Shown piece after piece: positions 1,410-40,046 of a DNA stretch of 40,190 nucleotides. The notes below the pieces were generated by a model. That model did no database searches and was not told the DNA's origin. It worked only from the letters and a program-made list of their open reading frames with translations. This DNA comes from a virus (taxonomy: Duplodnaviria > Heunggongvirae > Uroviricota > Caudoviricetes). A program made the translations under genes and the position numbers. The first letter of the stretch is position 1, and every line of letters starts with the position of its first letter. The DNA is taken from the IMG/VR virus record IMGVR_UViG_2698536576_000006, positions 1 to 40,190 of that record. One strand, given 5' to 3'.

Positions 1410-2543
1410 ATGAATTATGAAAAATATCATAGCACAAACAGAAGCAAGGGTTTGCGAACCTTCTGCTACTTAATTTATTATGTGCAGGTGATTTTTAATG
1501 TGATGAAGTGTTTTATGACTCGCGGAAACTTTGATTTTATAAACTCTAACGTGGTTTTCTCAGAAGCCGATAAGTCATTGTGGATTGATCTCATTAACAC
1601 CGATTGTATTTGGTATGATATGATAATTAATCCTCCTGATGATATAAAAACAAATAAGATAATAAAGAACTATCTCAGAATCATGGAAAAATATACGAGG
1701 GAAAACTGTGAAAAGAGATTTATTTATTTCTTAGGTTCAAGAAAAAAAGTGAGGTTTTCAACCAAGAAACAGCCTAGGTATAACCCATTCACAAAAAATA
1801 TAGTTTTCACTCTGTTAATTGGCAAAGAGGAGCGAAAGCTTCGGATAAAATATCCTTTTTGCACGTTTACGCAGAATGGGGTAGTGAAGATAACTCCAAA
1901 TGTTAGAGTAACTGAGAAATTTCTCTACATTGAAGATGAAAATGGCAATTTATGTGTGATGTCAGTTCATGACTTCGTAAACGGACATTATATTGATTTA
2001 GGCATTCATACAGAAGTGCATTACGTAGGATATACACGTCATCCGCATCGGCGCCCTGTTGATTTTATTCACCGTGGCTTATCAAAGATGCTGTATAGCG
2101 TTTCAAATGACGATAATGATTTTTTTGTTTGTTTTAGTATATTTAATCCAAGAATTATATCTCTGAATAATAAATGCAATGTGGTCTTTAATATTTCAAA
2201 TTCTCTACTGGATGAAATTGATGTTGATAATGAGGGGCGAATTATTGAAAACTGCTTAATACGTTACTTTGATCCTAAGCTTCAAGATGATGACAAGGAA
2301 AGTAAAAGGTCAGATTTAAATAAAATGTTTATGGACTTGGTGGAAAATAAAAAAATTAAAAAAATATACGTTAATTTTCAATATAAAAGGAATAATGAGT
2401 ATTTCTGCTTTTACTCTAAAGTTGTTCCGCCGAAATTTCATCATTTCTTTGTGCTGGATTTTTCTGATGACAAGATAAATATTGATAGAGACCAGGATAT
2501 GATGACTCAGATGGCATTGTGCATGGGGTATTATAATTATTAA
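1410..2543 (+). CDS. Hypothetical AT-rich cargo protein, no recognisable domain
   Basis: 377-aa uninterrupted ORF in a visibly AT-rich block (Asn/Lys/Ile/Phe/Tyr-rich product) between int and the leftward early operon. Start uncertain: ATG 1410 or internal ATG near 1503. Confidence 0.45.
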   Translation: MNYEKYHSTNRSKGLRTFCYLIYYVQVIFNVMKCFMTRGNFDFINSNVVFSEADKSLWIDLINTDCIWYDMIINPPDDIKTNKIIKNYLRIMEKYTRENCEKRFIYFLGSRKKVRFSTKKQPRYNPFTKNIVFTLLIGKEERKLRIKYPFCTFTQNGVVKITPNVRVTEKFLYIEDENGNLCVMSVHDFVNGHYIDLGIHTEVHYVGYTRHPHRRPVDFIHRGLSKMLYSVSNDDNDFFVCFSIFNPRIISLNNKCNVVFNISNSLLDEIDVDNEGRIIENCLIRYFDPKLQDDDKESKRSDLNKMFMDLVENKKIKKIYVNFQYKRNNEYFCFYSKVVPPKFHHFFVLDFSDDKINIDRDQDMMTQMALCMGYYNY

Positions 2544-7720: not shown

Positions 7721-8553
7721 ACAGTTTAACGGCAAATAACCGTTTGTCGCAACAGCTGGTGGTCAGCGTCGCTGAACACCTGTTGTTACGGCATGAATGC
7801 AGATTACCAAATCACCTGGCTGTAAGTAACCACAGAGAACTTTACCTGACTGTGGGGGGCGAGTTGTGCAGGAACTTAACCGCTGGTTTCGTGACGGAAG
7901 AGGGCTTTATGTCCATGTTATTCGTTGGGAGCCAGAAACACAGCGCGTTATCTATCTTCGCAAAGACTACCCGCATGAGTGCTTTAGTCCTTTGTGGAAA
8001 TTCAGGCGTGATTTTGTTGAGTGTGAAGGACCACCAGCACATTGATTCTGCCATTCCGGGACGTTACACTGTTCAGGCACCTTATAAAGCGGGTGTCGGG
8101 ATTGGCGTCCTGGAATTGCATACGGCGACAATTGGCGCGTTAGCGTCTTTTTTGTTGCTACAACTCAGCTATACCCAAATTATGGTGGGCTGGGTGGGGG
8201 CACCGAAAGGTGCGCCGGTTTCCGTATGCGCCGGTTACGCCAACCCTGCTCAGTTCACCACCAGCGAAATTGGCGTTTCCGGTGGTGGAAGTTATCCATT
8301 GCATACGGAGGCTGCCATCATGGCTACTGTCCCAGCCCTCTCTCGTCTGAATGATGAAGACTTACATAAACTCAGTTATGTAACAACTGCACTACGTGCT
8401 CTGCGCAAGGTAACTCTTTCGGATCCGCAGGCGCATCAAGTTCTGGTAGAAACCCTTCTTAACTTGCAGGCTGAACGTATTCGTCTGGCGGATAAGGCTA
8501 ATTTTCATATTCACTGTCTCCTGAATATCAGCGGAGGGCATCGTCATGCTTAA
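7717..8553 (+). CDS. Hypothetical early protein (278 aa)
   Basis: Translationally coupled on both sides (ATGA overlap at 7717, ATGCTTAA overlap at 8546-8553). No recognisable motif; no Walker A. Confidence 0.45.
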   Translation: MNSLTANNRLSQQLVVSVAEHLLLRHECRLPNHLAVSNHRELYLTVGGELCRNLTAGFVTEEGFMSMLFVGSQKHSALSIFAKTTRMSALVLCGNSGVILLSVKDHQHIDSAIPGRYTVQAPYKAGVGIGVLELHTATIGALASFLLLQLSYTQIMVGWVGAPKGAPVSVCAGYANPAQFTTSEIGVSGGGSYPLHTEAAIMATVPALSRLNDEDLHKLSYVTTALRALRKVTLSDPQAHQVLVETLLNLQAERIRLADKANFHIHCLLNISGGHRHA

Positions 8554-13669: not shown

Positions 13670-14152
13670 TTAAGAATTTATATTTCTTTTCTCTTCAAAT
13701 AATTCTTTAATTTTTAATGGTATAAATGTTGATTGTATGAATGAAAAACATGTTAAGAACGAAATTAAATGTGCAATAGTGGTTTTGGTATAATCAAAAT
13801 AAATACCGGAATGTGTTTTATCCTTGGATAAAAGATAAAAAACAAATATTAATGCAAGTGTAATTATATACATCAAAAATAAAGTGTAATATTTTACAAA
13901 GCGCATATAAAATCTAGTGTTTTGGTTTTCTTTTTCTAATGCATTAAGCGATTTAGATATTGATGAGTTTTCACCGGACATTGTGATAACTAACAATAAA
14001 AAACCAGATAGGATTGAGAAGACATTTGCAACAAGATTTAATGCATCATTATTATTTGTCAAACTATTCGTAAGATATTTGGAGAAAAGAAAGGAAGCCA
14101 CAAAATTTCCTATGGTAACTGAAATACCTGTCCAGTTATAATCTTTAAGCAT
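13670..14152 (-). CDS. Small four-helix integral membrane protein (RexB-like in topology), second gene of an inverted AT-rich two-gene module
   Basis: 160 aa with four hydrophobic segments of about 20 residues (res ~9-27, 38-60, 89-108, 124-146). AT-rich; opposite strand to the flanking phage late genes. Confidence 0.55.
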   Translation of the reverse strand: MLKDYNWTGISVTIGNFVASFLFSKYLTNSLTNNNDALNLVANVFSILSGFLLLVITMSGENSSISKSLNALEKENQNTRFYMRFVKYYTLFLMYIITLALIFVFYLLSKDKTHSGIYFDYTKTTIAHLISFLTCFSFIQSTFIPLKIKELFEEKRNINS

Positions 14153-14179
14153 ATGGCTCCCCTACAGTCTTTAGTTGCA

Positions 14180-15001
14180 TTATAACACATTTGTGACAAA
14201 ATGCTCTAAAATTTCATAAGCATATTTACTGGAAATTGTTTGTGATCCATATGGTAATGTGTAGTAAGTTTTTGTAAGTTTCATATCATCGCTAGTGATT
14301 TTCTCTCCTTTTTTAGTTTCAAAATAAAAGTCACTGTTTAAATCAGATAACCAGGGAGTCGGGTTACTTTCGATTGATGCAGCAACGGCAGGGTTACCTC
14401 TGGCATCAATAGTAAAATGACCACTTATTCCTGTTTGTTTTAATTTTGGTTCTTTTTTTACAAACGATGATAAGAAGTTAGGTTTTTTAACAAAATCTGA
14501 CTCATGTACATTGAAATTCACATGTACAGCACGTAAACCATCATCTTTTACTTTTTGAATTACATTCTTCTTTAAAACAGCTGACGGTATTATATCTATA
14601 CCGTAGCATTTGAATATTTTTGCTATTTTGACCTCACTCCAGTTGGTGGATATTTGAAGAAGTGAAGCAATCTGATTGCCTTTAACCATAAAAAAAGCAT
14701 GGAGATTGTCAAAATTTTCAACATCTAACAAATCTTTAACATTGGGTTTGTTTGGGGTAATCGATACTTCTTCTTTAGGGTTGTACAAAGAAAAATGTAA
14801 GTAATGGATATTACCACTGGTCCTGAATTCTTTTAACTTTAAATGTCTGTTAGTTGATAATGTGATTACGGAGCCCTGTACAAGTTGTTTATTGGTTGAT
14901 ATTTGCTGAAATAAATTATTTTTCCCGTCAAGGTTTACATTAAAAGCCCTGACTTGGCATTTTTTTGTTAAGTTGCTGTTTTTAGTGTCAGAAAAGTTCA
15001 T
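14180..15001 (-). CDS. Soluble 273-aa protein, first gene of the inverted two-gene module (candidate RexA-like sensor)
   Basis: AT-rich ORF 27 nt upstream of the membrane-protein gene on the same strand. Soluble ~270 aa plus ~150-aa 4-TM pairing mirrors lambda rexA-rexB. A short stretch (FFMVKGNQIASL) resembles my recollection of RexA; this is unverified. Confidence 0.5.
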   Translation of the reverse strand: MNFSDTKNSNLTKKCQVRAFNVNLDGKNNLFQQISTNKQLVQGSVITLSTNRHLKLKEFRTSGNIHYLHFSLYNPKEEVSITPNKPNVKDLLDVENFDNLHAFFMVKGNQIASLLQISTNWSEVKIAKIFKCYGIDIIPSAVLKKNVIQKVKDDGLRAVHVNFNVHESDFVKKPNFLSSFVKKEPKLKQTGISGHFTIDARGNPAVAASIESNPTPWLSDLNSDFYFETKKGEKITSDDMKLTKTYYTLPYGSQTISSKYAYEILEHFVTNVL

Positions 15002-15325: not shown

Positions 15326-15401
15326 GCCGACTTAGCTCAGCAGGCAGAGCAACTGACTTGTAATCAGTGGGTCACCAGTTCGATTCCGGTAGTCGGCACC
15401 A
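15326..15401 (+). tRNA. tRNA-Thr (anticodon UGU)
   Basis: 76-nt cloverleaf folded by hand: acceptor GCCGACT/AGTCGGC, D-loop with GG, anticodon stem ACTGA/TCAGT with loop CTTGTAA, T-loop TTCGATT, 3' CCA encoded. Near-identical to host thrU as recalled. Confidence 0.9.
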
Positions 15402-15404
15402 TAT

Positions 15405-15479
<75 letters not shown>

Positions 15480-15770: not shown

Positions 15771-16090
15771 TAATTCGCAAAAAAGAAAACATGGACACTG
15801 ATAATGCCCGTGCGGTAATGCCATGCAAGTTAGCGATAAATATGGAATAAAAAAAGCGCGGCTGTCGGATTAACGCTGCGGGACAAACTCCTTGAAGAAG
15901 AATAAGTATCGGTCTCCTTCAGGGAGATGCGTTTATATTACTAAGCATTAAGAATGGTTTGAATTCTCAGATTAACCTTAATTCCAGATGAGATTTATTT
16001 CATTTTCTCCGGGCCACGTCCGGCACACATCACATCAGATAACACCGCACAAAAGGCATCTGCGGGTGCCTTTGACGGGGTGTTTTTTAC

Positions 16091-16116
16091 GGGCCGCTGG
16101 TGGCCCTTTTTTATTT
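16091..16116 (+). terminator. Hairpin plus T-run immediately upstream of the holin gene (tR'-like candidate)
   Basis: gggcc-gctggt-ggccc followed by TTTTTT, 15 nt before the holin RBS. Confidence 0.45.
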
Positions 16117-16130
16117 ACAGGAGAAAAAGT

Positions 16131-16523
16131 ATGTCTGAACCCTTATCCGGTTCCGGCACGGCTGCGGCGCTCGGCGGGGCGACGGTATTCGGGCTGTTTA
16201 CCGGAACGGATTTCGGGATTGTGTTTGGTGCGTTCGCCGGGGCGTTATTTGTGGCAACGATGCCGCAGGCGCTTTCAGCCTGGCGTGTGGCGGCGCATTT
16301 TCTGGTGTCGTTCATTATCGGCGTGCTGGGGGCAGAGGTTCTGGCATCCTGGCTGGTCAGGCACACAGAGTTTAACGGTGCACCTGTTGACGCATTGTGT
16401 GCAGTACTGGTGTCAGTGGTGTCGGTGAAGATTCTCTCGTTCATCCACCAGCAGGATATTGCATCGCTGGTGTCCGGCCTGTTCTCCCGCCTGCGGGGTG
16501 GAGGAGGCGGCAATGTTAAGTAA
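16131..16523 (+). CDS. Holin
   Basis: 130-aa product from ATG 16131 (AGGAG RBS) with Gly/Ala-rich transmembrane segments and a charged C-terminus; first gene of the lysis cassette. ORF-track start 16080 rejected. Confidence 0.7.
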   Translation: MSEPLSGSGTAAALGGATVFGLFTGTDFGIVFGAFAGALFVATMPQALSAWRVAAHFLVSFIIGVLGAEVLASWLVRHTEFNGAPVDALCAVLVSVVSVKILSFIHQQDIASLVSGLFSRLRGGGGGNVK

Positions 16524-17022
16524 CCTTCCCGGATTGCTGAATGTGGCGTTATGTACGGTTATCGTGCTGACGCTCTTTTTTTATCGTCGTCGTGATTCCA
16601 GACATAAACCGCTGGTGTCATGGCTGGCCTGGCTGCTGATGCTGCTGTATGCCTTTGTGAGATTCAGCCGCCGGAGCGAGAAAAATCTGGAGGGCGTCAA
16701 ATCACAGCTGGTTGCTGTCGTTCGCCGTGCGCTGGAGCTGACGGAAGTTGATTTCGGTATTACGGAAGGCCTGCGCACAAAAGAGCGCCAGATACAACTG
16801 GTTGCGGAAGGGAAAAGCCAGACCATGAACAGCCGCCACCTGACCGGTGATGCGGTGGATGTTGTGGCCTACGTTGGCAACCAGGTGTCATGGGACTGGC
16901 CTCTGTACGAGAAAATCGCACAGGCATTTAATCAGGCTGCCGCAGAGCTGGGTATCGCCATTGAATGGGGCGGGGACTGGAGTTCTCTGAAAGACGGACC
17001 ACATTTCCAGCTGAAGCGCTGA
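16513..17022 (+). CDS. Endolysin, peptidase M15 family (L-alanyl-D-glutamate peptidase type) with hydrophobic N-terminal extension
   Basis: C-terminal region (VDFGITEGLRT...HLTGDAVDV...WGGDW...DGPHFQL) matches M15 zinc peptidase endolysins. About 60 N-terminal residues contain two hydrophobic stretches. Start ATG 16513 after GGAGGAGG. Confidence 0.8.
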   Translation: MLSNLPGLLNVALCTVIVLTLFFYRRRDSRHKPLVSWLAWLLMLLYAFVRFSRRSEKNLEGVKSQLVAVVRRALELTEVDFGITEGLRTKERQIQLVAEGKSQTMNSRHLTGDAVDVVAYVGNQVSWDWPLYEKIAQAFNQAAAELGIAIEWGGDWSSLKDGPHFQLKR

Positions 17023-17037
17023 CAGCAGGGGCTGATT

Positions 17038-17505
17038 ATGAGCAGAGTTACTGCGATTATCTCCCCTCTGGTTTTCTGCATCATTGTCTGCCTGTCATTG
17101 GCTGTTAATCATTATCGTAATAATGCCATTACCTACAAAGCGCAGCGCGACAAAAATGCCAGAGAACTGAAACTGGCGAACGTGACAATTACTGACATGC
17201 ATCAGCGCCAGCGTGATGCTGATGCACTCGATGCTAAATACACGAAGGAGTTAGCTGATGCGAAAGCTGAAAATGATGCTCTTCGGCGTAAGCTTGATAA
17301 TGGTGGACGGATGCTCGTCAAAGGCAGATGTCCAGTGCCAGCCACAACAAAAGGCTCCGGCACCGCCAGCATGGGCAATGATGCCACCGTCGAACTCTCT
17401 CCAGTTGCTGGACGAAACGTTCTCGGTATCCGGGATGGAATCATCAGCGACCAAGCAGCCTTGAGAACGCTACAGGAGTACATCAGGACGCAATGTCTGA
17501 ATTAA
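17038..17505 (+). CDS. Rz: Spanin inner-membrane subunit Rz (i-spanin)
   Basis: N-terminal ~85 residues nearly match lambda Rz as recalled (MSRVTAIIS...[26 protein letters not shown]...[19 protein letters not shown]). Confidence 0.9.
17258..17464 (+). CDS. Rz1: Spanin outer-membrane lipoprotein Rz1 (o-spanin), embedded in Rz in the +1 frame
   Basis: ORF fully inside Rz in another frame; N-terminal signal with Cys (LIMVDGC) and Pro-rich mature part ([11 protein letters not shown]), as in lambda Rz1. Confidence 0.7.
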
Positions 17506-17568
17506 CAGAGCCAGCTTAATTGCTGGCTGTTTGTGTGAGGATGGGATTGTGTGAATGTTCAGGTATTA

Positions 17569-18159
17569 TTATATGAATTGCTGGATAAAATCGTTCGGTT
17601 TTGTATATCCGTCAAGAACTAGATCGTGATTCTCCCGATGAAGAACCAGTGTATCCATATAATCAGGTTTAAATCTCCAGCCGTTCATCTTTTTTGCAAT
17701 TTTCGACAGACAGTGGTTATGCGTGAAAATTACAGTAATATTATCAGATTGTGATATTCCCAGTATGTTGTTAACTGCGCCATCATCACAGGTTGAAATA
17801 TCAGGAATGGTTGCTGTTTTCCCACCCGAAAAAAAAGAGGCTGTCTGTATCGTTCGGACTGTATCTGTTGAATAGAGACCGTAGTCCGGAAACATTTTGC
17901 TGAATGCATTTCCATATTGTTGAGCTTTGTTGGCTCCATTTATTGTGATTCCATCACGTTCCGACAGGCATGTATTTGTGGAGCGATCACATCGTTCTCC
18001 ATGTCTGATGAGAAAAATAATCTGATGCTTCTGGTTAATTTCAGTGATGTCATTCATATCAAGCCTGGCCGGAGTTCTTTTTATATATATGCTTGACAAG
18101 CAAACGAATATAACGAGTAAAGATATAATCAGAAATTTTATTATTGTGCGGCTGGGCAT
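17569..18159 (-). CDS. Ais/PmrG-like histidine-phosphatase (LPS core heptose(II)-phosphate phosphatase homolog), prophage moron
   Basis: Signal/TM N-terminus followed by RHGERCDRSTNTCLS...GITINGA...NAFS...LYSTDTVRTIQTA...IFTHNHCL, closely paralleling E. coli Ais as recalled. AT-rich, opposite strand. Start set at ATG 18159 (AAGGA RBS). Confidence 0.75.
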   Translation of the reverse strand: MPSRTIIKFLIISLLVIFVCLSSIYIKRTPARLDMNDITEINQKHQIIFLIRHGERCDRSTNTCLSERDGITINGANKAQQYGNAFSKMFPDYGLYSTDTVRTIQTASFFSGGKTATIPDISTCDDGAVNNILGISQSDNITVIFTHNHCLSKIAKKMNGWRFKPDYMDTLVLHRENHDLVLDGYTKPNDFIQQFI

Positions 18160-18247
18160 ATAAATATCCTTATACAGGTGTGTGAAAAAGGACATTATTA
18201 TTTGTAAATCTTATGTGATCCTTAAGGGGGGCTGACGTGGCGAAATG

Positions 18248-18280
18248 GGCACTGGTAGCGGTACCGGTGCCTTTTTTATT
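18248..18280 (+). terminator. Strong hairpin plus T-run
   Basis: ggcactggtag-cg-gtaccggtgcc (about 10-bp stem) followed by TTTTTT. Confidence 0.45.
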
Positions 18281-18551
18281 GATGGGATGCATTAGCTTGG
18301 ATAAGGTGCTCCAGCTTTTCGATACAGCTTCTCAGGTCTGTGAAATTGTCGACGGTGTTCGGCAGTGTCTGCAGAACTGATTGCCTGTAAGAGCAGAATA
18401 TTTTGCTGAAAAATGAAGGATACATCAGCGTCAGGAAAGCATGAAATTCTGTGTTTGTGGCTACTCAATAAAATAAATTCTTTCTGTCTCCGCGAATACT
18501 CAAATGTTGATCAGTGCCCGGTGCGGAGACGGGCTTCGATATCAGGAGGCG

Positions 18552-18851
18552 ATGATGGAAAAAACAGAAAACAAACTGATTGTAATTGGTGCTGATGCTG
18601 CTCCGTTTAAGTTTGAGTCGTCTCAACTGGTGGAGATGCGCATCAGTGATGAATGGGGTGAGGTTAAAGCCCGCGCGCAGTGTGCGGATGGCGAAAACCA
18701 GTAGTTGATCCACTACAAAGCAGCTGATGGTCGCGCCACGACGGAGTGGTTTGGTGAGTCAATGCTGGAAGCAACAGAAGATGATCGTCATCCTGGTTGT
18801 CCGGTATTTGCCTGTATGAAATTACCGGAAGGCGCAGTTGTTACTGAGTAA
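18552..18851 (+). pseudogene. Small phage ORF interrupted by an in-frame amber (TAG) codon
   Basis: AGGAGG RBS, ATG 18552, 50 sense codons, TAG at 18702-18704, then 48 further in-frame sense codons to TAA 18849-18851 (verified codon by codon). Nonsense pseudogene or readthrough candidate. Confidence 0.4.
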
Positions 18852-19106: not shown

Positions 19107-19607
19107 GTGGATAAGGAATTGAAACACCTTGTTCTTAATGTCAGCCAGTTAGCTGCGCTGTCGGGTGTGCACCGACAGACTGTCGCATCAAGAATCAAAA
19201 ATATCCGAACAGCGGGTGGGCATGAGAGTAACCTCAAGCTGTATAAACTTACTGATATTCTGGCAGAATTAATGAAGTTGCCACCGCCTGTCGCTGAAGG
19301 AGAAATGGATCCCCATGACCGAAAAGCCTGGTATCAGTCAGAACGTGAGCGCCTGAAATTCGAACAGGAGGTCGGAGAACTGATCCCTGCGTCTGATGTC
19401 GCCCGTGAATTTGCTGAAATGGCAAAGGCTATGGTGCAGGTTCTGGAAACCCTCCCCGATATTCTTGAACGCGATTGCGCTCTTGAGCCTTCGGCTGTCA
19501 TGCGGGTGCAAAGCATTATTGATGATCTGCGTGACGAAATTGCGCGGCGGGTGGCAGATGACAGCAAACAGGAAGATACAGAGGAGGAAAATCAGGAGGA
19601 CGAATAA
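19107..19607 (+). CDS. Terminase small subunit
   Basis: 166 aa with N-terminal HTH-like segment (LNVSQLAALSGVHRQTVASRIKN) and acidic C-terminus. GTG start after GGAGG; stop overlaps the large-subunit ATG (TAATG). Confidence 0.7.
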   Translation: MDKELKHLVLNVSQLAALSGVHRQTVASRIKNIRTAGGHESNLKLYKLTDILAELMKLPPPVAEGEMDPHDRKAWYQSERERLKFEQEVGELIPASDVAREFAEMAKAMVQVLETLPDILERDCALEPSAVMRVQSIIDDLRDEIARRVADDSKQEDTEEENQEDE

Positions 19608-21724
19608 TGCCTGTGCAGGCGACCGCCAGATCGTTGAAACTGGATACGGGCCAGTTAATTAAAGCGCCGCGCAGAATGCCTGTTGCCGAAGCGGTACAAA
19701 AATTTATGCGAGTCCCTACATCTGGTGGCAACTCTGTTCCGTGGGATCCGATGGTTGCACCGTATGTGATTGACCCCATGAACTGCCTGTCGTCCCGTGA
19801 GTTTGATGCGGTTGTTTTTGTTGGTCCTGCCCGTACGGGCAAGACTAACGGCCTGATTGATGGCTGGGTGGTTTATAACATTGTCTGCGATCCGTCTGAC
19901 TTTTTGCTGGTGCAGATGACACAGGATAAGGCGCAGGAGCACTCCAAAAAGCGCCTGGCAAGAACATTTCGTTGCAGCCCGGAGGTCAGAAAACGCCTCA
20001 GCCCACGCCGTAACGATAACAACGTTCATGACAAATATTTTCTGTCGGGCAGCTTTCTGAAAATCGGCTGGCCTTCCATCAATGTCATGTCATCCTCTGA
20101 TTTTAAATGTGTGGCGCTGACTGATTACGACCGATTTCCTGAAGATATCGATGGCGAAGGCGATGGTTTTTCCTTGGCTTCAAAACGTACCACCACATTT
20201 ATGTCTGCAGGTATGACGCTGGTGGAGAGTTCCCCTGGACGTGAGATCACAAACAGCAAATGGCGCAGAACGTCACCGCATGAAGCCCCGCCCACAACGG
20301 GGATCCTTTCTCTGTATAACCGTGGCGATCGTCGTCGCTGGTACTGGCCCTGCCCGGATTGTGGTGATTATTTCCAGCCATCGATGGAGGCTATGACGGG
20401 ATATCGTGACAATCCTGATCCTGTAAAAGCCAGTGAAGCGGCTCATATATTGTGTCCGCATTGTGGCAGCCCAATCACTGCAGATATGAAACGTGAGCTG
20501 AATGGTCGCGGTGTCTGGTTGCGTGAAGGAGAGCATATTGACAGAGAAGGGAATGTTACCGGAACGCCCCGTCATTCAAGGATTGCCAGCTTCTGGATGG
20601 AAGGCCCCGCGGCAGCCTATCAGACCTGGGCGCAACTGGTTTACAAACTACTGACTGCTGAGCAGGAATATGAAGCCACAGGCAGTGAGGAAACACTGAA
20701 GGCGGTGATTAACACCGACTGGGGATTACCTTATTTGCCTCGTTCCGCCATGGAGTTGCGCAGTGCAGATGTTCTGATGCAGCGGGCCGGGAATTACGGT
20801 AAGCGCCTGGTACCGCCGAAAGTGCGTTTTCTTATTGCGGCTGTGGACGTGCAGGGCGGGAAGAACCGACGGTTTGTGGTGCAGATTATTGGTTATGGCG
20901 AGGACGGCGAACGCTGGCTGGTGGACCGTTATAACATCCGACAGTCATTGCGCTGTGATGAAAATGGCGAAGCATTACCTGTGCATCCCGGGGCTTACCC
21001 TGAAGACTGGCAATTACTGGTCACCGATGTACTGGAGAAAACGTATCCGCTCCAGTCCGATCCGGCCCGCAGAATGCCTGTACTGGCAATGGCGGTGGAC
21101 AGTGGTGGTGAGGACGGGGTGACGGATAACGCCTATAAATTCTGGCGAAAATGTCGTCAGGATGGACTGGGGCGACGGGTTTTTCTGGTAAAGGGAGACA
21201 GCACGAAACGCCAGAAAATTATCACCATCACGCACCCGGATAATACCGGGCGAAGCGATCGTCGTGCTGATGCTCAGGGGAAGGTGCCGGTATATCTCCT
21301 GCAGACAGACCTGCTGAAAGATCAACTAAGCAATAACCTGCAACGTGAAATGCCCGGACCAGGCTACATTCATTTTCCTGACTGGCTCGGGGAGTGGTTT
21401 TATGAAGAGTTGACCTACGAGGAACGCGGTGCTGACGGGAAATGGCGCAAGCCGGGAAAAGGGAATAACGAAGCATTTGACCTTTTTTGTTATGCCCATG
21501 CCGTCGCCATTCTGCGTGGCTATGAAAAAATCCGTGACTGGAGCAACCCTCCCCAGTGGGCAAGAGGGCAGGATGCTGATGCGGGTGCTTCGGCAGACAG
21601 ACGTTCTTCCGGCGCAGAGGACAAGAAAAACGTTGCCGGAAGAGATGAGCGGCAAAAAGCAGCGTCGCCGGAAGCGTTATCCGGAAACTGGTTATCACTA
21701 CCCCGAAACGGAGGATGGTTGTGA
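19607..21724 (+). CDS. Terminase large subunit (lambda GpA family)
   Basis: 705 aa; Walker A-like VFVGPARTGKT near the N-terminus; size and downstream nuclease-type region typical of GpA-family terminases. Confidence 0.9.
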   Translation: MPVQATARSLKLDTGQLIKAPRRMPVAEAVQKFMRVPTSGGNSVPWDPMVAPYVIDPMNCLSSREFDAVVFVGPARTGKTNGLIDGWVVYNIVCDPSDFLLVQMTQDKAQEHSKKRLARTFRCSPEVRKRLSPRRNDNNVHDKYFLSGSFLKIGWPSINVMSSSDFKCVALTDYDRFPEDIDGEGDGFSLASKRTTTFMSAGMTLVESSPGREITNSKWRRTSPHEAPPTTGILSLYNRGDRRRWYWPCPDCGDYFQPSMEAMTGYRDNPDPVKASEAAHILCPHCGSPITADMKRELNGRGVWLREGEHIDREGNVTGTPRHSRIASFWMEGPAAAYQTWAQLVYKLLTAEQEYEATGSEETLKAVINTDWGLPYLPRSAMELRSADVLMQRAGNYGKRLVPPKVRFLIAAVDVQGGKNRRFVVQIIGYGEDGERWLVDRYNIRQSLRCDENGEALPVHPGAYPEDWQLLVTDVLEKTYPLQSDPARRMPVLAMAVDSGGEDGVTDNAYKFWRKCRQDGLGRRVFLVKGDSTKRQKIITITHPDNTGRSDRRADAQGKVPVYLLQTDLLKDQLSNNLQREMPGPGYIHFPDWLGEWFYEELTYEERGADGKWRKPGKGNNEAFDLFCYAHAVAILRGYEKIRDWSNPPQWARGQDADAGASADRRSSGAEDKKNVAGRDERQKAASPEALSGNWLSLPRNGGWL

Positions 21725-37760: not shown

Positions 37761-40046
37761 ATGGTAGTGATATCAGGTGCGCTGATAGATGGCGCAGGCA
37801 TCCCCATGTCCGGATGCCACATAATTCTGAAATCCCGGGTAAACACCTCGGAAGTGGTGATGCGCACAGTTGCCGACGTGGTGACAGGAAATAATGGAGA
37901 ATATTCGTTCGGGGCACAGGTCGGGAAATATTGTGTATATCTGAAGCAGGACTGGTGCGACGAGTACTGTGTTGGCGACATTTCGGTTTACGACGACTCC
38001 AGGCCCGGCACACTGAATGACTTTCTGACTGCCCTCGATGAAGGCGATTTAAAGCCGGATGTAGTGAAACGCTTTGAGGAAATGGTGGCGCAGGCGCAGC
38101 AGAGCGCGGAAGCGGCAGCGGAAAGCGAACGACAGGCCGGGCAACATGTCGCTGATGCGCAACAAATTAAGAGCGACTGCGAGACGCTGGCGGATAATGT
38201 ACAGCAGAACGCAGAAGCCGTTGCCGAAGATAAAAAGCAGATAGCGTTACTGGCGTCATCTGCTTCGCAGGATGCGGCCCGCGCAGAGCAGGCTGCCAGT
38301 GATGCCGATAAGGCCGTTCAGAAAGCTGTCGATAAACTTTCTGATGCCGCAACGCTGACCGGTGAGGCTAAAGCCAGCGCTGAAGCTGCCGCACAAAGCG
38401 AGCAGAATGCGAAAAATCACGCTGATAATGCAGCAGAAAGCGCACGGCAGACTGTGCAGGATGTGGAGGCAACGACTATTGCCCGCAGTGATGCGGAGCG
38501 TTTTGCGGATGAGGCAGAAAACAGCGCACAGACATCAGGTGCCGCACGGGATAAATCCGTTGATGCTGCTGAACAGGCTCGTCAGCATAAAGAGGCTGCA
38601 TCTTCGGCAGCAACCAGCGCGGAAAATGCGGCAAATTCCGCACTCGGGCATGAAAACAGCGCCGCTGAATATGCCCGACAGGCTAAAGCCAGTCAGGATA
38701 CGAGCGCAGACAATGCACGGGAATCGAAACAGCAGAGGGATGAAGCGCAACGGATAGTTGATGACCTGAAGGGAACCAGCGCCACCACGACAGAAAAAGG
38801 CCTGGTGCAACTCAGTAGTGACACTGACAACGACAGTGAAGAGCTGGCAGCCACGTCAAAAGCCGTCAAAATCGTCATGGACGAGACGAAAACAAAAGCA
38901 CAGCTGGACAGCCCGGCGTTCACAGGTAAGCCAACCGCACCAACCCCGCCGGACGATGCGGTCGGGCTGGAGATGGCAAACGCGGCGTTTGTCCGCAAAC
39001 TACTCGCCGCACTGGTTGACTCGTCACCGGAAGCCCTGGACACACTGAACGAGCTGGCCGCGGCGCTGGGCAATGACCCGAACTTTGCGACAACAATCAT
39101 GAACGCGCTGGCAGGTAAACAACCGCTGAGCGATGTGCTGACGGCAATCAGTGAGCTGACGCAACGGGCAGATAATCTTCTGTGCTTTAATCAGGACGGG
39201 AATGCTTCACTGTCTCCGCTGTCAGAAAAAGCCCGTTCACTGCTGGCACAGGACATTCCTGAAGCCATGCGCCATGAGCTGGAGCTGGCAGTATCTGCAA
39301 CAATGGAGCCTCAGAGTGATATTTATGATCGCACTGCTGGTTGTCTGGCGATTCCCGGAGGGTTTGGCTTTGGCGCATTGTTCACAGATGAACAGGAAAT
39401 GCATTTCAGTGCCGAAAACGGACCGACTGAATTTTTGCAGTGGGTGCGTGAAACACCACCAGGACGCTATCTTGTCAGTCAGTACGACGGTAATAAAAAG
39501 GCCCCCATTATTAATGGCTCCGATACACTGAATTTTTCTGGTTATCTGGATATTGAAGTTCGCACAAATACCACCCCGGAGAATCAGCAAAATGCAACGA
39601 AACAGGTTATTTTTAAAGGAATAAACGGAGAGAGTTACACGGCAACAATTCACAGCAACATCACCCCTGTAACCCTGCCTGACAGCTGGGATAATGAGTT
39701 ACTTAAGGTTGATGATTTTACACAGGTACTGCGCTCTTCCACCGGCAATAGCTGGGGGAGTCCTGATATTGGGGGGCTGATGCTGGGGGCATATCTGGGA
39801 GAGGCGGAAAGTAATGAGAGCATAAGGCTGTACAGGGGGATGATTGTGCCCGGCTCACGAATTGGTCAAATAGGCATGATGGGGATACTGGGGAGTTCTG
39901 CTACAAGCAATAGCACGCCGCAATTTTATCTTGCAGACAGCAGCGTAACACCACAGTCAGGCAGTTTTGTCGCCTTATCCGGTAACAACAGAATTATGGC
40001 CAGTTCAAAGTTTTATTATGTTGGTTTATTCATGCGGGTGGCATAA
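37761..40046 (+). CDS. Side tail fiber protein (lambda Stf-like) with divergent C-terminal domain
   Basis: N-terminus (ISGALIDGAGIP...VYDDSRPGTLNDFL) and central block (KGLVQLSS...LAATSKAVKIVMDETK...LDSPAFTGKPTAPT...DTLNELAAALGNDPNFATTIMNALAGKQP) parallel lambda Stf. Ala/Gln/Glu-rich shaft between. Last ~280 residues have no recalled match. Confidence 0.8.
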   Translation: MVVISGALIDGAGIPMSGCHIILKSRVNTSEVVMRTVADVVTGNNGEYSFGAQVGKYCVYLKQDWCDEYCVGDISVYDDSRPGTLNDFLTALDEGDLKPDVVKRFEEMVAQAQQSAEAAAESERQAGQHVADAQQIKSDCETLADNVQQNAEAVAEDKKQIALLASSASQDAARAEQAASDADKAVQKAVDKLSDAATLTGEAKASAEAAAQSEQNAKNHADNAAESARQTVQDVEATTIARSDAERFADEAENSAQTSGAARDKSVDAAEQARQHKEAASSAATSAENAANSALGHENSAAEYARQAKASQDTSADNARESKQQRDEAQRIVDDLKGTSATTTEKGLVQLSSDTDNDSEELAATSKAVKIVMDETKTKAQLDSPAFTGKPTAPTPPDDAVGLEMANAAFVRKLLAALVDSSPEALDTLNELAAALGNDPNFATTIMNALAGKQPLSDVLTAISELTQRADNLLCFNQDGNASLSPLSEKARSLLAQDIPEAMRHELELAVSATMEPQSDIYDRTAGCLAIPGGFGFGALFTDEQEMHFSAENGPTEFLQWVRETPPGRYLVSQYDGNKKAPIINGSDTLNFSGYLDIEVRTNTTPENQQNATKQVIFKGINGESYTATIHSNITPVTLPDSWDNELLKVDDFTQVLRSSTGNSWGSPDIGGLMLGAYLGEAESNESIRLYRGMIVPGSRIGQIGMMGILGSSATSNSTPQFYLADSSVTPQSGSFVALSGNNRIMASSKFYYVGLFMRVA

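Follow-up and report, generated by a model that had tools for sequence, protein, structure and literature searches.

Gene content and organization of the locus

The window examined in this work (the whole stretch of DNA, 40,190 nt) comes from a lambda-like E. coli prophage, in which the phosphatase gene described here is an extra gene located just past the lysis genes. The genes and features of this part of the prophage are as follows.

16080-16523, holin gene
16459-17022, holin/M15 endolysin gene
17038-17505, Rz gene, with Rz1 embedded at 17258-17464
17506-18238, minus strand, self-contained moron cassette (terminator hairpin, coding sequence, 5' UTR, -10, and PmrA box plus 12 nt)
17509-17528, both strands, GC-rich hairpin at the point where the Rz and phosphatase genes converge, found by terminator scan
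17569-18159, minus strand, intact coding sequence of an Ais/PmrG-family histidine phosphatase (196 aa plus stop)
18167-18171, minus strand, Shine-Dalgarno sequence AAGGA, 7 nt before the ATG at 18159, read from the sequence
19107-19607, DUF1441 gene
19607-21724, large terminase gene

The ORF at its longest extends over 17569-18195 on the minus strand (208 aa from the ATG at 18195). That upstream ATG overlaps the predicted -10 hexamer and was rejected as the start; the ATG at 18159 is the PGAP start in E. coli E10, homologue N-termini align there, and the Shine-Dalgarno sequence favors it as well. The encoded protein is identical to NCBI WP_053287506.1 in an exact-sequence look-up. We concluded that the phosphatase gene is a real accessory gene that is already annotated in the database and does not represent a new kind of system. 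Its GC content is 0.384; in a profile computed in 500-nt bins, the lysis and terminase bins are at 0.50-0.58 and the bins holding the gene (17501-18500) at 0.39-0.40, in agreement with its earlier description as AT-rich.

The original prediction placed the gene on the strand opposite to Rz/Rz1, in the slot where lambda carries bor. The distance from the end of Rz/Rz1 to the phosphatase gene is 64 nt, and since lambda bor is likewise a minus-strand ORF (97 aa) that begins 31 nt past Rz (L035 1960-2253), the positional analogy holds. The two genes also share opposite transcription, presumed expression from the prophage (the moron concept of Hendrix and colleagues), and, as predicted for the phosphatase, an envelope-directed role in lysogenic conversion. 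The proteins differ, however: the 97-aa Bor of lambda is a lipoprotein of the outer membrane that has been linked to serum resistance and is no enzyme, and it is unrelated to the phosphatase in sequence and fold. No Bor homology was detected in a Pfam scan of the phage protein, which returned His_Phos_1 only.

The hairpin at 17509-17528 is likely a bidirectional terminator, with a T-tract that is weak on the minus strand. On the other side of the cassette, homology to prophages without the phosphatase gene picks up again at 18239 (L017). The 214-4 prophage lacks ~17049-18238, an indel that takes in Rz/Rz1 as well as the cassette. The gene thus displays the features of a moron, i.e., deviant GC content, presence/absence (214-4), a predicted promoter, and the hairpin. 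In other elements it occupies the same slot on the opposite strand beside three endolysin types and three small-terminase types (examples are E10, 08-00022, Stx1 phage GER2, PSJ-22, L011, L049, and L054). Elsewhere the prophage is damaged: holin and endolysin are fused, and an ORF at 18504-18851 is interrupted.

Family assignment, catalytic residues, and fold

The NCBIfam profile NF011945 (LPS core heptose(II)-phosphate phosphatase subfamily, PRK15416) matches residues 16-197 of the 208-aa ORF with 213 bits against a cutoff of 142 (E=3e-63), and Pfam His_Phos_1 (PF00300) matches with 24.3 bits against a gathering cutoff of 21.7. Three motifs carry the catalytic residues:

17980-18006, minus strand, RHGERCDRS (codons 52-60), the catalytic motif, whose R52-H53-G54 occupies 17998-18006 with His53 as the nucleophile, and the family-specific RCDRS
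17839-17856, minus strand, RTIQTA (codons 102-107), with the second catalytic Arg, R102; R102, Q105, and A107 are invariant
17710-17724, minus strand, THNHC (codons 146-150), the second catalytic His region (H147/H149); H147, H149, and C150 are invariant

In an alignment of 42 family members, 23 columns are invariant, in RHG-ERCDRS, GIT, RTIQTA, and THNHC among others. The catalytic His, on which the proposed Ais-like activity depended, is present: H53 is invariant together with R56, C57, D58, and R59, and R52 is at least 90% conserved. A PDB sequence search with the single phage protein gave no match. The family profile aligned RHGE and RTIQTA with the motifs of PFKFB2 fructose-2,6-bisphosphatase, but the PFKFB matches were weak, so the fold assignment rests on the AlphaFold (AF2) model and Foldseek. 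The model is an alpha/beta histidine-phosphatase fold (pLDDT 91.9). Foldseek against PDB returned 178 matches at E<=1e-3; among the matches listed all belong to the histidine-phosphatase superfamily, including the MutT1 HP domain, phosphoserine phosphatase, SixA (1ujb), RosC, and PGAM5 (E ~1e-7 to 1e-5). With the RHG motif, second Arg and His, Pfam score, and fold all present, the phage protein is a member of branch 1 of the histidine phosphatase superfamily.

The similarity to Ais and PmrG, which was to be checked by alignment, stands at the level of the subfamily and fails at the level of orthology. Salmonella PmrG and E. coli Ais share with the phage protein the NF011945 match, a length of ~200 aa, the motifs RH[GA]ERCDRS, GIT, RTIQ[ST]A, and THNHC, and a predicted N-terminal export segment; they carry RHA where the phage protein has RHG. 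The identity to chromosomal Ais/PmrG in the family alignment is 38-41% (about 38-44% for the characterised Salmonella PmrG), and the PmrG equivalog NF052369 scored 116.4 bits, below its cutoff of 170. We therefore regard the phage protein as a paralogue from a separate mobile clade, which stands apart from the chromosomal Ais/PmrG clade in an NJ tree. Nor does the gene share the synteny of PmrG: it is located between Rz and the terminase in a prophage, whereas ais and pmrG adjoin arnB (pmrH/pbgP) of the arn operon. No chromosomal donor for the mobile clade was found in a scan of GTDB species representatives, where the best identity was 48-49% (Dryocola, Citrobacter), and no PHROGs model matched the phage protein.

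PmrG removes a phosphate from LPS core heptose(II) (PMC8129183, citing Nishino 2006). Because the phage protein is a paralogue and not an orthologue of the characterised PmrG, this substrate is extrapolated. It is possible, though rather unlikely in our estimate, that an active periplasmic histidine phosphatase acts here on something else, such as heptose(I) phosphate/pyrophosphoethanolamine, lipid A 1-diphosphate, a Kdo substituent, or a periplasmic or membrane phosphoprotein. The separate clade, the missed equivalog cutoff, and a predicted membrane anchor in place of the cleavable signal peptide of Ais point in that direction, as do the nearest structural relatives, which differ widely in substrate (for example the phosphohistidine phosphatase SixA). 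However, conservation shared with Ais/PmrG extends far past the catalytic core (RCDRS, GIT, Y96, F110, THNHCL, Y167), which suggests a common binding pocket, and the PmrA-type promoter described below puts the gene in an LPS-remodelling regulon.

The gene is under purifying selection. Its dN/dS against seven mobile-clade homologues is 0.17-0.31, and most of the lineages are separated by a dS of 0.7-1.2, which argues that it is functional. Taken with the NF011945 E-value and the Pfam score above the gathering cutoff, these ratios show that the gene is not a chance ORF.

N-terminus and predicted topology

The protein had been described as secreted or membrane-bound, and the hydrophobic N-terminal segment agrees with this:

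18079-18150, minus strand, N-terminal hydrophobic helix (codons 4-27) in the AF2 model, predicted uncleaved signal anchor

The phage N-terminus, FLIISLLVIFVCLSSIYI-KRTP, is without a small-x-small cleavage site; chromosomal Ais has one (..GTHA-AWS), and Ais/PmrG differ from the phage protein in this respect (cleavable signal peptide versus predicted uncleaved anchor). The arrangement looks like an inner-membrane anchor with the N-terminus inside and the catalytic domain in the periplasm. Charges are found on both sides of the helix, so that the positive-inside rule is indecisive for the topology. A periplasmic location fits with the conserved cysteine pairs Cys57/Cys64 and Cys127/Cys150 and with the homologues that have cleavable signal peptides. 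A lipoprotein was considered and rejected, as there is no lipobox before Cys20, and Cys20 is unconserved (absent in homologue P0001).

A predicted, conserved PmrA/BasR-type promoter

The most informative feature of the locus is a conserved PmrA/BasR-type promoter upstream of the phosphatase gene, which is new here and was missed by the original prediction. Its elements are:

18210-18226, minus strand, PmrA/BasR box-like direct repeat CTTAAG-gatca-CATAAG, standing in for a -35
18194-18199, minus strand, predicted -10 hexamer AATAAT, exactly 10 nt downstream of the box
near 18183-18188, minus strand, predicted transcription start

The predicted promoter reads CTTAAGgatcaCATAAG, 10 nt, and AATAAT; no -35/-10 promoter of the sigma-70 type turned up in the upstream region. 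The K-12 arnB promoter (CTTAAGgttaaGTTAAT, 10 nt, TAAAAT) has the same spacing. The consensus of the PmrA box and its position at -37 to -21 have been described; the box takes the place of the -35 element, and its TAA bases are contacted by PmrA (PMC10570014, PMC3973317). The phage arrangement is, at the sequence level, that of a class-II PmrA-dependent promoter, with two xTTAAK-type hexamers and the -10 spacing; the second half-site, CATAAG, departs from xTTAAK at one position. The pattern YTTAAK-N5-YWTAAK, which was chosen post hoc, has a single match in the window against 0.06 expected. The looser pattern TTAA-N7-TAA followed after 9-11 nt by a -10 has two matches against 0.23 expected; the second match (13848, plus strand) falls within an AT-rich ORF, and we attribute it to chance.

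Eight diverged mobile-clade lineages (58-93% aa identity) all keep xTTAAx-N5-xxTAAx, exactly 10 nt, and a -10-like hexamer; this unit is found 64-71 nt before the ATG in each of the eight, while the remaining upstream flank has diverged. The bases TTAA...TAA (TTAA-N7-TAA) are invariant, and the -10-like hexamer is in the same register with positions 2 (A) and 6 (T) invariant. The box is absent from IS-flanked copies with different upstream DNA (Salmonella L008 and pEC416, L007) and from the P0035 plasmid lineage. At chromosomal ais (K-12) and pmrG (Salmonella) the box-to-(-10) geometry was not seen, only the divergent arnB/pbgP box being obvious, which counts against the explanation preferred below; the phage promoter is thus not simply a chromosomal copy. 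PmrG and Ais are members of the PmrA regulon and the phage gene is a predicted one, with an arnB-like class-II geometry of its own. From the sequence, the phosphatase gene appears to carry its own PmrA/BasR-responsive promoter.

Distribution and alternative functions

The allele with its flanks is present in 3 of 5,426 complete E. coli genomes, and any close DNA homologue in 50. Together with the damage elsewhere in the prophage, such rarity would be expected of a decaying, unexpressed passenger without current function. We consider this very improbable, given that the ORF is intact with all catalytic residues present, that dN/dS is low, and that the promoter elements are kept across lineages with synonymous sites near saturation. 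The E10 genome has two matching places and retains chromosomal ais, which counts against the explanation preferred below as regards the benefit of a second copy. A literature search on prophage-borne Ais/PmrG or AfrS returned nothing usable.

The carriers of the family are prophages, IS-flanked islands on virulence plasmids, and IncI1 plasmids, where the protein is called TraG (R64 nomenclature, between traF and traH). TraG has the same product name as the phage protein and 41% identity to it (P0081). It differs in that it belongs to another clade, is located inside the transfer operon without its own PmrA box, and has HHGER as its commonest variant versus RHGER in the phage.

AfrS of the AF/R2 fimbrial locus is a member of the same mobile clade (~60% identical; P0120, L052-L057). 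In rabbit EPEC, AfrS comes second among the regulatory genes of the AF/R2 fimbrial operon. One truncated homologue (P0120) bears the database name "transcriptional activator AfrS", a role that is hard to square with a phosphatase fold; taken literally, it would make the phage protein a regulator and not an LPS enzyme. A full-length AfrS-like lineage occurs in prophages at the same slot (L052-L057), an AraC-family gene is also found in some such prophages (L054 5570-6421; L011 8103-8831), and one homologue is near a CS1-type fimbrial operon (L008). Against this, the phage protein has no DNA-binding domain, whereas its phosphatase active site is complete, its cysteines are conserved, and a membrane anchor is predicted at its N-terminus; the AfrS name is a legacy annotation, and a regulatory effect could be indirect via the envelope. 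A regulatory role is hardly credible on these grounds.

The bor/lom-type slots of lambdoid phages typically hold surface-modifying genes, and the same chemistry might serve the mobile element by editing receptors, with altered adsorption of LPS-core-dependent phages (superinfection exclusion, sparing of progeny) or altered recognition by conjugative adhesins, IncI PilV for example. We judge this unlikely. It would be in keeping with the three kinds of mobile elements that carry the family, and with the location of IncI1 TraG beside shufflon/thin-pilus and transfer genes. In addition, waaP mutants resist a Salmonella phage, and phosphorylation of inner-core heptose can determine a phage receptor (PMC13471373). 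However, a PmrA-type promoter implies expression under envelope-stress signals only, while exclusion genes are expected to be constitutive. No PADLOC model matches the phage protein, and we know of no phage that needs heptose(II)-phosphate specifically. Transposon insertions in IncI1 traG are mostly neutral for transfer (PMC4288162). A broader version, which we regard as speculative and quite unlikely, would make the mobile clade no spare Ais but a distinct, membrane-anchored, PmrAB-cued inner-core editor that alters a surface epitope and so controls adsorption or mating, i.e., a receptor-masking module common to phages and plasmids. It may act on core-dependent phages that superinfect, on progeny of the phage itself, and on IncI conjugation mediated by PilV.

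Proposed role in lysogens

The explanation that we prefer, and hold to be fairly probable, is that the gene is a moron providing PmrAB-controlled dephosphorylation of the LPS inner core in lysogens. The moron, with its own predicted promoter and terminator, has the lysis cassette of a lambdoid prophage on one side and the packaging genes on the other. In the lysogen, PmrA (BasR), phosphorylated upon activation by Fe3+/Al3+ or mild acid, would bind the CTTAAG-N5-CATAAG box that replaces the -35 and bring sigma-70 RNA polymerase to the AATAAT -10 located 10 nt downstream. On the periplasmic side of the inner membrane, the putative His53 nucleophile, helped by R52, R102, and H147/H149, would cleave phosphate from the LPS inner core, the substrate being most probably heptose(II)-phosphate. 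Surface negative charge would be lowered jointly with the host arn/eptA modifications, and the PmrAB regulon of the host would gain from the prophage a second core phosphatase, this one bound to the membrane. Lysogenic conversion of this kind might mainly help the cell to tolerate metal or acid and to remodel its envelope; ligands that recognize the inner core may be affected as a side effect. The effect on antimicrobial-peptide resistance that was originally anticipated is probably small, since PmrA-constitutive E. coli was as resistant to polymyxin B after deletion of its chromosomal pmrG as before (PMC8129183).

Other prophage genes that alter the LPS chemistry of the lysogen include gtrABC (glucosylation) and Oac (O-acetylation) of P22/Sf6-type phages. 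These encode O-antigen transferases and are generally viewed as constitutive (exclusion/serotype conversion), whereas the phage phosphatase would be an inner-core hydrolase, apparently under a host two-component system. If the preferred explanation is true, this is an unusual prophage gene wired into the host PmrAB (BasSR) envelope-stress regulon by a canonical activator box, and a case of lysogenic conversion aimed at the LPS inner core and not at the O-antigen. Some pathogenic E. coli, including carriers of GER2-type Stx1 phages, would then hold an extra, horizontally acquired modifier of LPS charge; metal/acid tolerance could shift, and possibly phage or conjugation susceptibility. No study of the role of the family on IncI1 plasmids (TraG) was found in the literature searched, and the assignment offers a testable function for a family that appears in the annotation of IncI1 resistance plasmids.

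The phosphatase gene and its position in the prophage

A complete lambdoid prophage makes up the window. It runs from the integrase (1-1236) to the tail fibre gene (37761-40046), in the order integrase, CI-like repressor, CII, replication genes, KilA-N, DUF968, Q, two tRNAs, lysis cassette, terminase, head and tail genes, and tail fibre. The features at the end of the lysis cassette are:

17038-17505, Rz (PF03245), its stop 64 nt before the phosphatase gene
17258-17464, Rz1-like lipoprotein ORF embedded in Rz
17509-17528, GC-rich hairpin at which Rz and the phosphatase gene converge
17569-18159 (-), phosphatase gene, 196 aa

It had been proposed from the sequence that an AT-rich, prophage-borne gene for an Ais/PmrG-like LPS phosphatase occupies the position of lambda bor. 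The finding is real and the outline of that reading is correct. The gene has a GC content of 0.384, compared with 0.50-0.58 in the lysis and terminase genes (500-nt bins), and it lies on the opposite strand after Rz, as does bor, a 97-aa minus-strand ORF beginning 31 nt past Rz. The likeness is one of position: the two proteins are unrelated, and the gene is an analogue of bor, not a homologue. A 208-aa ORF is open at 17569-18195 (-), and its internal ATG gives the 196-aa protein. We concluded that the internal ATG is the correct start because it is the PGAP start in E. coli E10 (99.8% identical), the N-termini of the homologues line up there, AAGGA stands 7 nt 5' of it (18171-18167), and the predicted -10 element takes in the ATG of the 208-aa ORF (18195-18193). 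The 208-aa start was accordingly rejected.

A mobile clade of the Ais/PmrG family

The protein scores 116 against the PmrG equivalog model NF052369 (cutoff 170) and narrowly exceeds the gathering score of Pfam His_Phos_1. Its identity to Escherichia chromosomal Ais and Salmonella PmrG is 38-41% when 42 members of the family are aligned, and 44-47% in local BLASTP alignments. The neighbour-joining tree has three groups: chromosomal Ais/PmrG, an IncI1-plasmid group, and a "mobile" clade that includes the window protein. Twenty-three columns are invariant among the 42 members, including H53 (RHG motif), R56-C57-D58-R59, G70-I71-T72, R102/Q105/A107 (RTIQTA) and H147/H149/C150 (THNHC); R52 is conserved in more than 90%. 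The catalytic histidine, on which the original prediction had been made to depend, is present, since the family profile aligns RHGE, together with RTIQTA, to the same motifs in the fructose-2,6-bisphosphatase domain of PFKFB2. A confident AlphaFold2 model built from the alignment (pLDDT 91.9, pTM 0.85) has only histidine-phosphatase superfamily neighbours among its Foldseek PDB matches, namely the MutT1 HP domain, phosphoserine phosphatases, SixA, RosC and PGAM5; sequence and family-profile searches of the PDB found no solved structure of an Ais-family member. Judged by sequence, the protein belongs to the wider Ais/PmrG family and would work like PmrG/Ais. It is not an orthologue of PmrG, because the score is below the equivalog cutoff and the chromosomal synteny of PmrG is absent from the prophage gene.

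The gene (58-93% aa identity) occupies one slot in very different lambdoid prophages: past the last lysis gene, on the opposite strand, ahead of the small terminase.

Table. Neighbours of the phosphatase gene in comparison strains, phages and contigs (L numbers)
E10: M15 endolysin, Rz, DUF1441
08-00022: class II holin, RrrD lysozyme, Rz, a different small terminase
Stx1 phage GER2 (Sepvirinae) and 11 IMG/VR contigs: muramidase, Rz-like
PSJ-22: GH108 endolysin, no Rz
L011-L013: GH108, Nu1/GpA
L049: GH108
L054 ("AfrS-like"): M15, DUF1441

Relative to the 214-4 prophage, the window carries an insertion at ~17049-18238, with the endolysin on one side and a small conserved ORF on the other; the inserted segment holds Rz/Rz1, the phosphatase gene and its predicted promoter. 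The 1-kb region was found in 3 of 5,426 complete E. coli genomes, and a DNA homologue over at least 80% of the gene in 50 of them; the window allele is rare. GER2 is the only deposited phage genome with the gene, and no PHROG family matched the protein. The mobile clade also has members in IS-flanked islands of virulence plasmids (AIDA-I plasmid pLD39-1, pEC416) and one adjoining a CS1-type fimbrial operon in Salmonella. No close chromosomal donor was found among species-representative genomes, the best being Dryocola and Citrobacter (48-49% identity). Against seven mobile-clade homologues dN/dS is 0.17-0.31 (dS 0.7-1.2 for most lineage pairs), which indicates that the protein is under purifying selection. 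These ratios, and the promoter conservation described below, contradict the idea that the gene is a dead passenger.

Databases already list both the gene and its product name: the exact protein is WP_053287506.1, named as a phosphatase, with 59 member sequences in its 90% cluster, some on more than 100 contigs. We found no paper on prophage-borne Ais/PmrG copies. The present analysis adds the recognition of the mobile clade as distinct, the constant position of its genes across a range of lambdoid and Stx prophages, a predicted membrane anchor and a predicted conserved PmrA-type promoter.

Several observations concern the relatives. The E10 prophage, otherwise identical, is truncated (L001 8208-8973): the first ~650 nt of its large terminase gene are fused to genes for a P2-like baseplate and tail, making a defective hybrid, unlike the window prophage with its full structural module. 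In prophages with the AfrS-like and P0020 phosphatase lineages, an AraC-family regulator gene lies upstream of the lysis genes (L054 5570-6421 (-); L011 8103-8831 (-)). This combination recalls AF/R2, a fimbrial locus with a gene pair named AfrR/AfrS; a regulator gene of this kind is absent from the window prophage. A cousin of the window phosphatase is IncI1 TraG (L018 5001-5585), an Ais-family phosphatase encoded between traF and traH (DotD-like). Among its variants P0081 is the commonest (1403 member sequences); it reads HHGER in place of RHGER, so that the first catalytic Arg is substituted; P0113 keeps RHGER and has a 6-residue deletion, and P0060 is another TraG entry. Plasmid records with a family member total 1438.

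A predicted PmrA-dependent promoter

No sigma-70 -35/-10 promoter was detectable 5' of the gene. The minus strand carries, 67 nt before the ATG, CTTAAG gatca CATAAG atttacaaat AATAAT. The PmrA box consists of two xTTAA[T/G]-type hexamers 5 nt apart, for example CTTAAT...CCTAAG in K. pneumoniae and Salmonella pbgP; it stands in for the -35 element, covering roughly -37 to -21, and its repeated TAA bases are the PmrA contacts (PMC3973317, PMC10570014). The K-12 arnB promoter has CTTAAGgttaaGTTAAT followed by 10 nt and TAAAAT, K-12 eptA carries CTTAAGgttggCTTAAT and Salmonella pbgP carries CTTAATgttaaTTTAAT. The pattern YTTAAK-N5-YWTAAK, written after the site had been seen, has this sole match in 40 kb (0.06 expected). 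Comparison across lineages is the stronger evidence: all eight mobile-clade lineages compared keep xTTAAx-N5-xxTAAx, exactly 10 nt and a -10-like hexamer, with the box starting 64-71 nt 5' of the ATG, while the upstream DNA otherwise aligns poorly and synonymous sites are close to saturation.

Table. Predicted promoter elements in eight lineages (half-site 1, spacer, half-site 2, -10)
Window: CTTAAG, gatca, CATAAG, AATAAT
08-00022: CTTAAG, gatta, CATAAG, AATAAT
GER2: CTTAAG, gatta, CATAAG, AATAAT
PSJ-22: ATTAAT, tgcct, CATAAG, TATAAT
L049: CTTAAG, gattc, CTTAAG, AATAAT
pLD39: ATTAAG, cgtta, TTTAAG, AACAGT
L054: GTTAAG, atttt, CTTAAT, TATATT
L011: CTTAAG, gattt, TTTAAG, AATAAT

Invariant columns are TTAA, TAA and -10 positions 2 and 6. 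Copies with different, IS-flanked upstream DNA have no box. A class-II PmrA/BasR-dependent promoter is thus a well-supported prediction for the mobile-clade genes with the box, and one that is clear and cheap to test. Since the same geometry was not seen upstream of chromosomal ais and pmrG, the predicted promoter resembles that of arnB, unlike that of the chromosomal paralogue.

Predicted membrane anchor and proposed function

One long hydrophobic helix, made up of residues 4-27, precedes KRTP. Chromosomal Ais/PmrG carry a classical signal peptide that is cleavable (..GTHA-AWSS), whereas no small-x-small signal-peptidase site follows the helix of the window protein, and for this reason we predict an uncleaved N-in signal anchor with a periplasmic catalytic domain. 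Two conserved cysteine pairs (C57/C64 and C127/C150) are compatible with the periplasm; the charges flanking the helix are not decisive for topology.

The best-supported model is a moron that puts a membrane-anchored Ais-family phosphatase under host PmrAB. Exposure of a lysogen to Fe3+/Al3+ or mild acid would then lead to loss of an inner-core phosphate, most likely the one on heptose II, on which PmrG acts (Nishino 2006, cited in PMC8129183), and this would accompany the modifications made by arn and eptA. Deletion of pmrG in PmrA-constitutive E. coli leaves polymyxin B resistance unchanged (PMC8129183), so the benefit is expected to lie in tolerance of metals or acid, not in resistance to polymyxin. 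The failed PmrG equivalog test and the predicted anchoring, unlike that of chromosomal Ais/PmrG, would also suit a rival reading, in which the enzyme acts on a different phosphorylated substrate. Receptor editing that excludes phages or conjugative adhesins is plausible given the presence of the family on prophages, virulence plasmids and IncI1 plasmids; a stress-gated promoter would speak against constitutive exclusion. That the protein is a regulator is suggested only by the legacy name "AfrS".

Other features of the prophage

Further observations in the window are:

1410-2543 (+), 377-aa AT-rich ORF (GC ~0.31-0.33) directly past the integrase, PHROG 7779 (unknown function)
8077-8153 (+), isrK Hfq-binding sRNA
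8178-8265 (+), C4 antisense RNA
13670-15001 (-), two AT-rich ORFs (GC ~0.30-0.32) between Q and the tRNAs
15326-15479 (+), tRNA-Thr(UGU) and tRNA-Gly(UCC), 5' of the lysis cassette
16459-17022, holin-endolysin fusion ORF, 187 aa
18237-18380 (+), small Cys-rich lipoprotein-like ORF (lipobox LLMGC), PHROG 7528 (unknown function)
18247-18272 (+), terminator-like hairpin within the PHROG 7528 ORF
18504-18851 (+), PHROG 1935 homologue

The 377-aa ORF, without a match in Pfam or PADLOC, may be an accessory or defence gene. Both RNAs match Rfam above the gathering score, and together (8077-8265) they are a P1/P7-type antirepressor control module, seen in Gifsy-like prophages. The ORFs at 13670-15001 encode a 160-aa multi-pass membrane-like protein and a 273-aa protein of PHROG 23561 (unknown function); neither matched PADLOC, and they look like another moron pair. 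Related prophages (E10, 08-00022, PSJ-22 and 214-4) retain the tRNA pair in the same location.

Relative to E10, 214-4 and IMG/VR contig L022, the window lacks ~140 nt that separate the second holin (Phage_holin_3_7) from the M15 endolysin (junction ~16658-16660); the resulting in-frame fusion matches both Pfam families and could represent an artefact of the assembly, a lysis defect or an endolysin tethered to the membrane. The PHROG 7528 segment (L017 3460-3642) is ~93% conserved at the DNA level, and the prophages that have it come from considerably more than a thousand complete E. coli genomes. In 214-4 the ORF has 60 aa, lies straight after the endolysin in the place of Rz and has its first three codons (MSR) in common with Rz; the window copy is without the first 14 residues and has a GTG start. 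The PHROG 1935 homologue (98 aa in 08-00022) has an in-frame stop in the window (18702-18704) that leaves 66-aa and 48-aa ORFs, and the E10 copy is a pseudogene according to PGAP.
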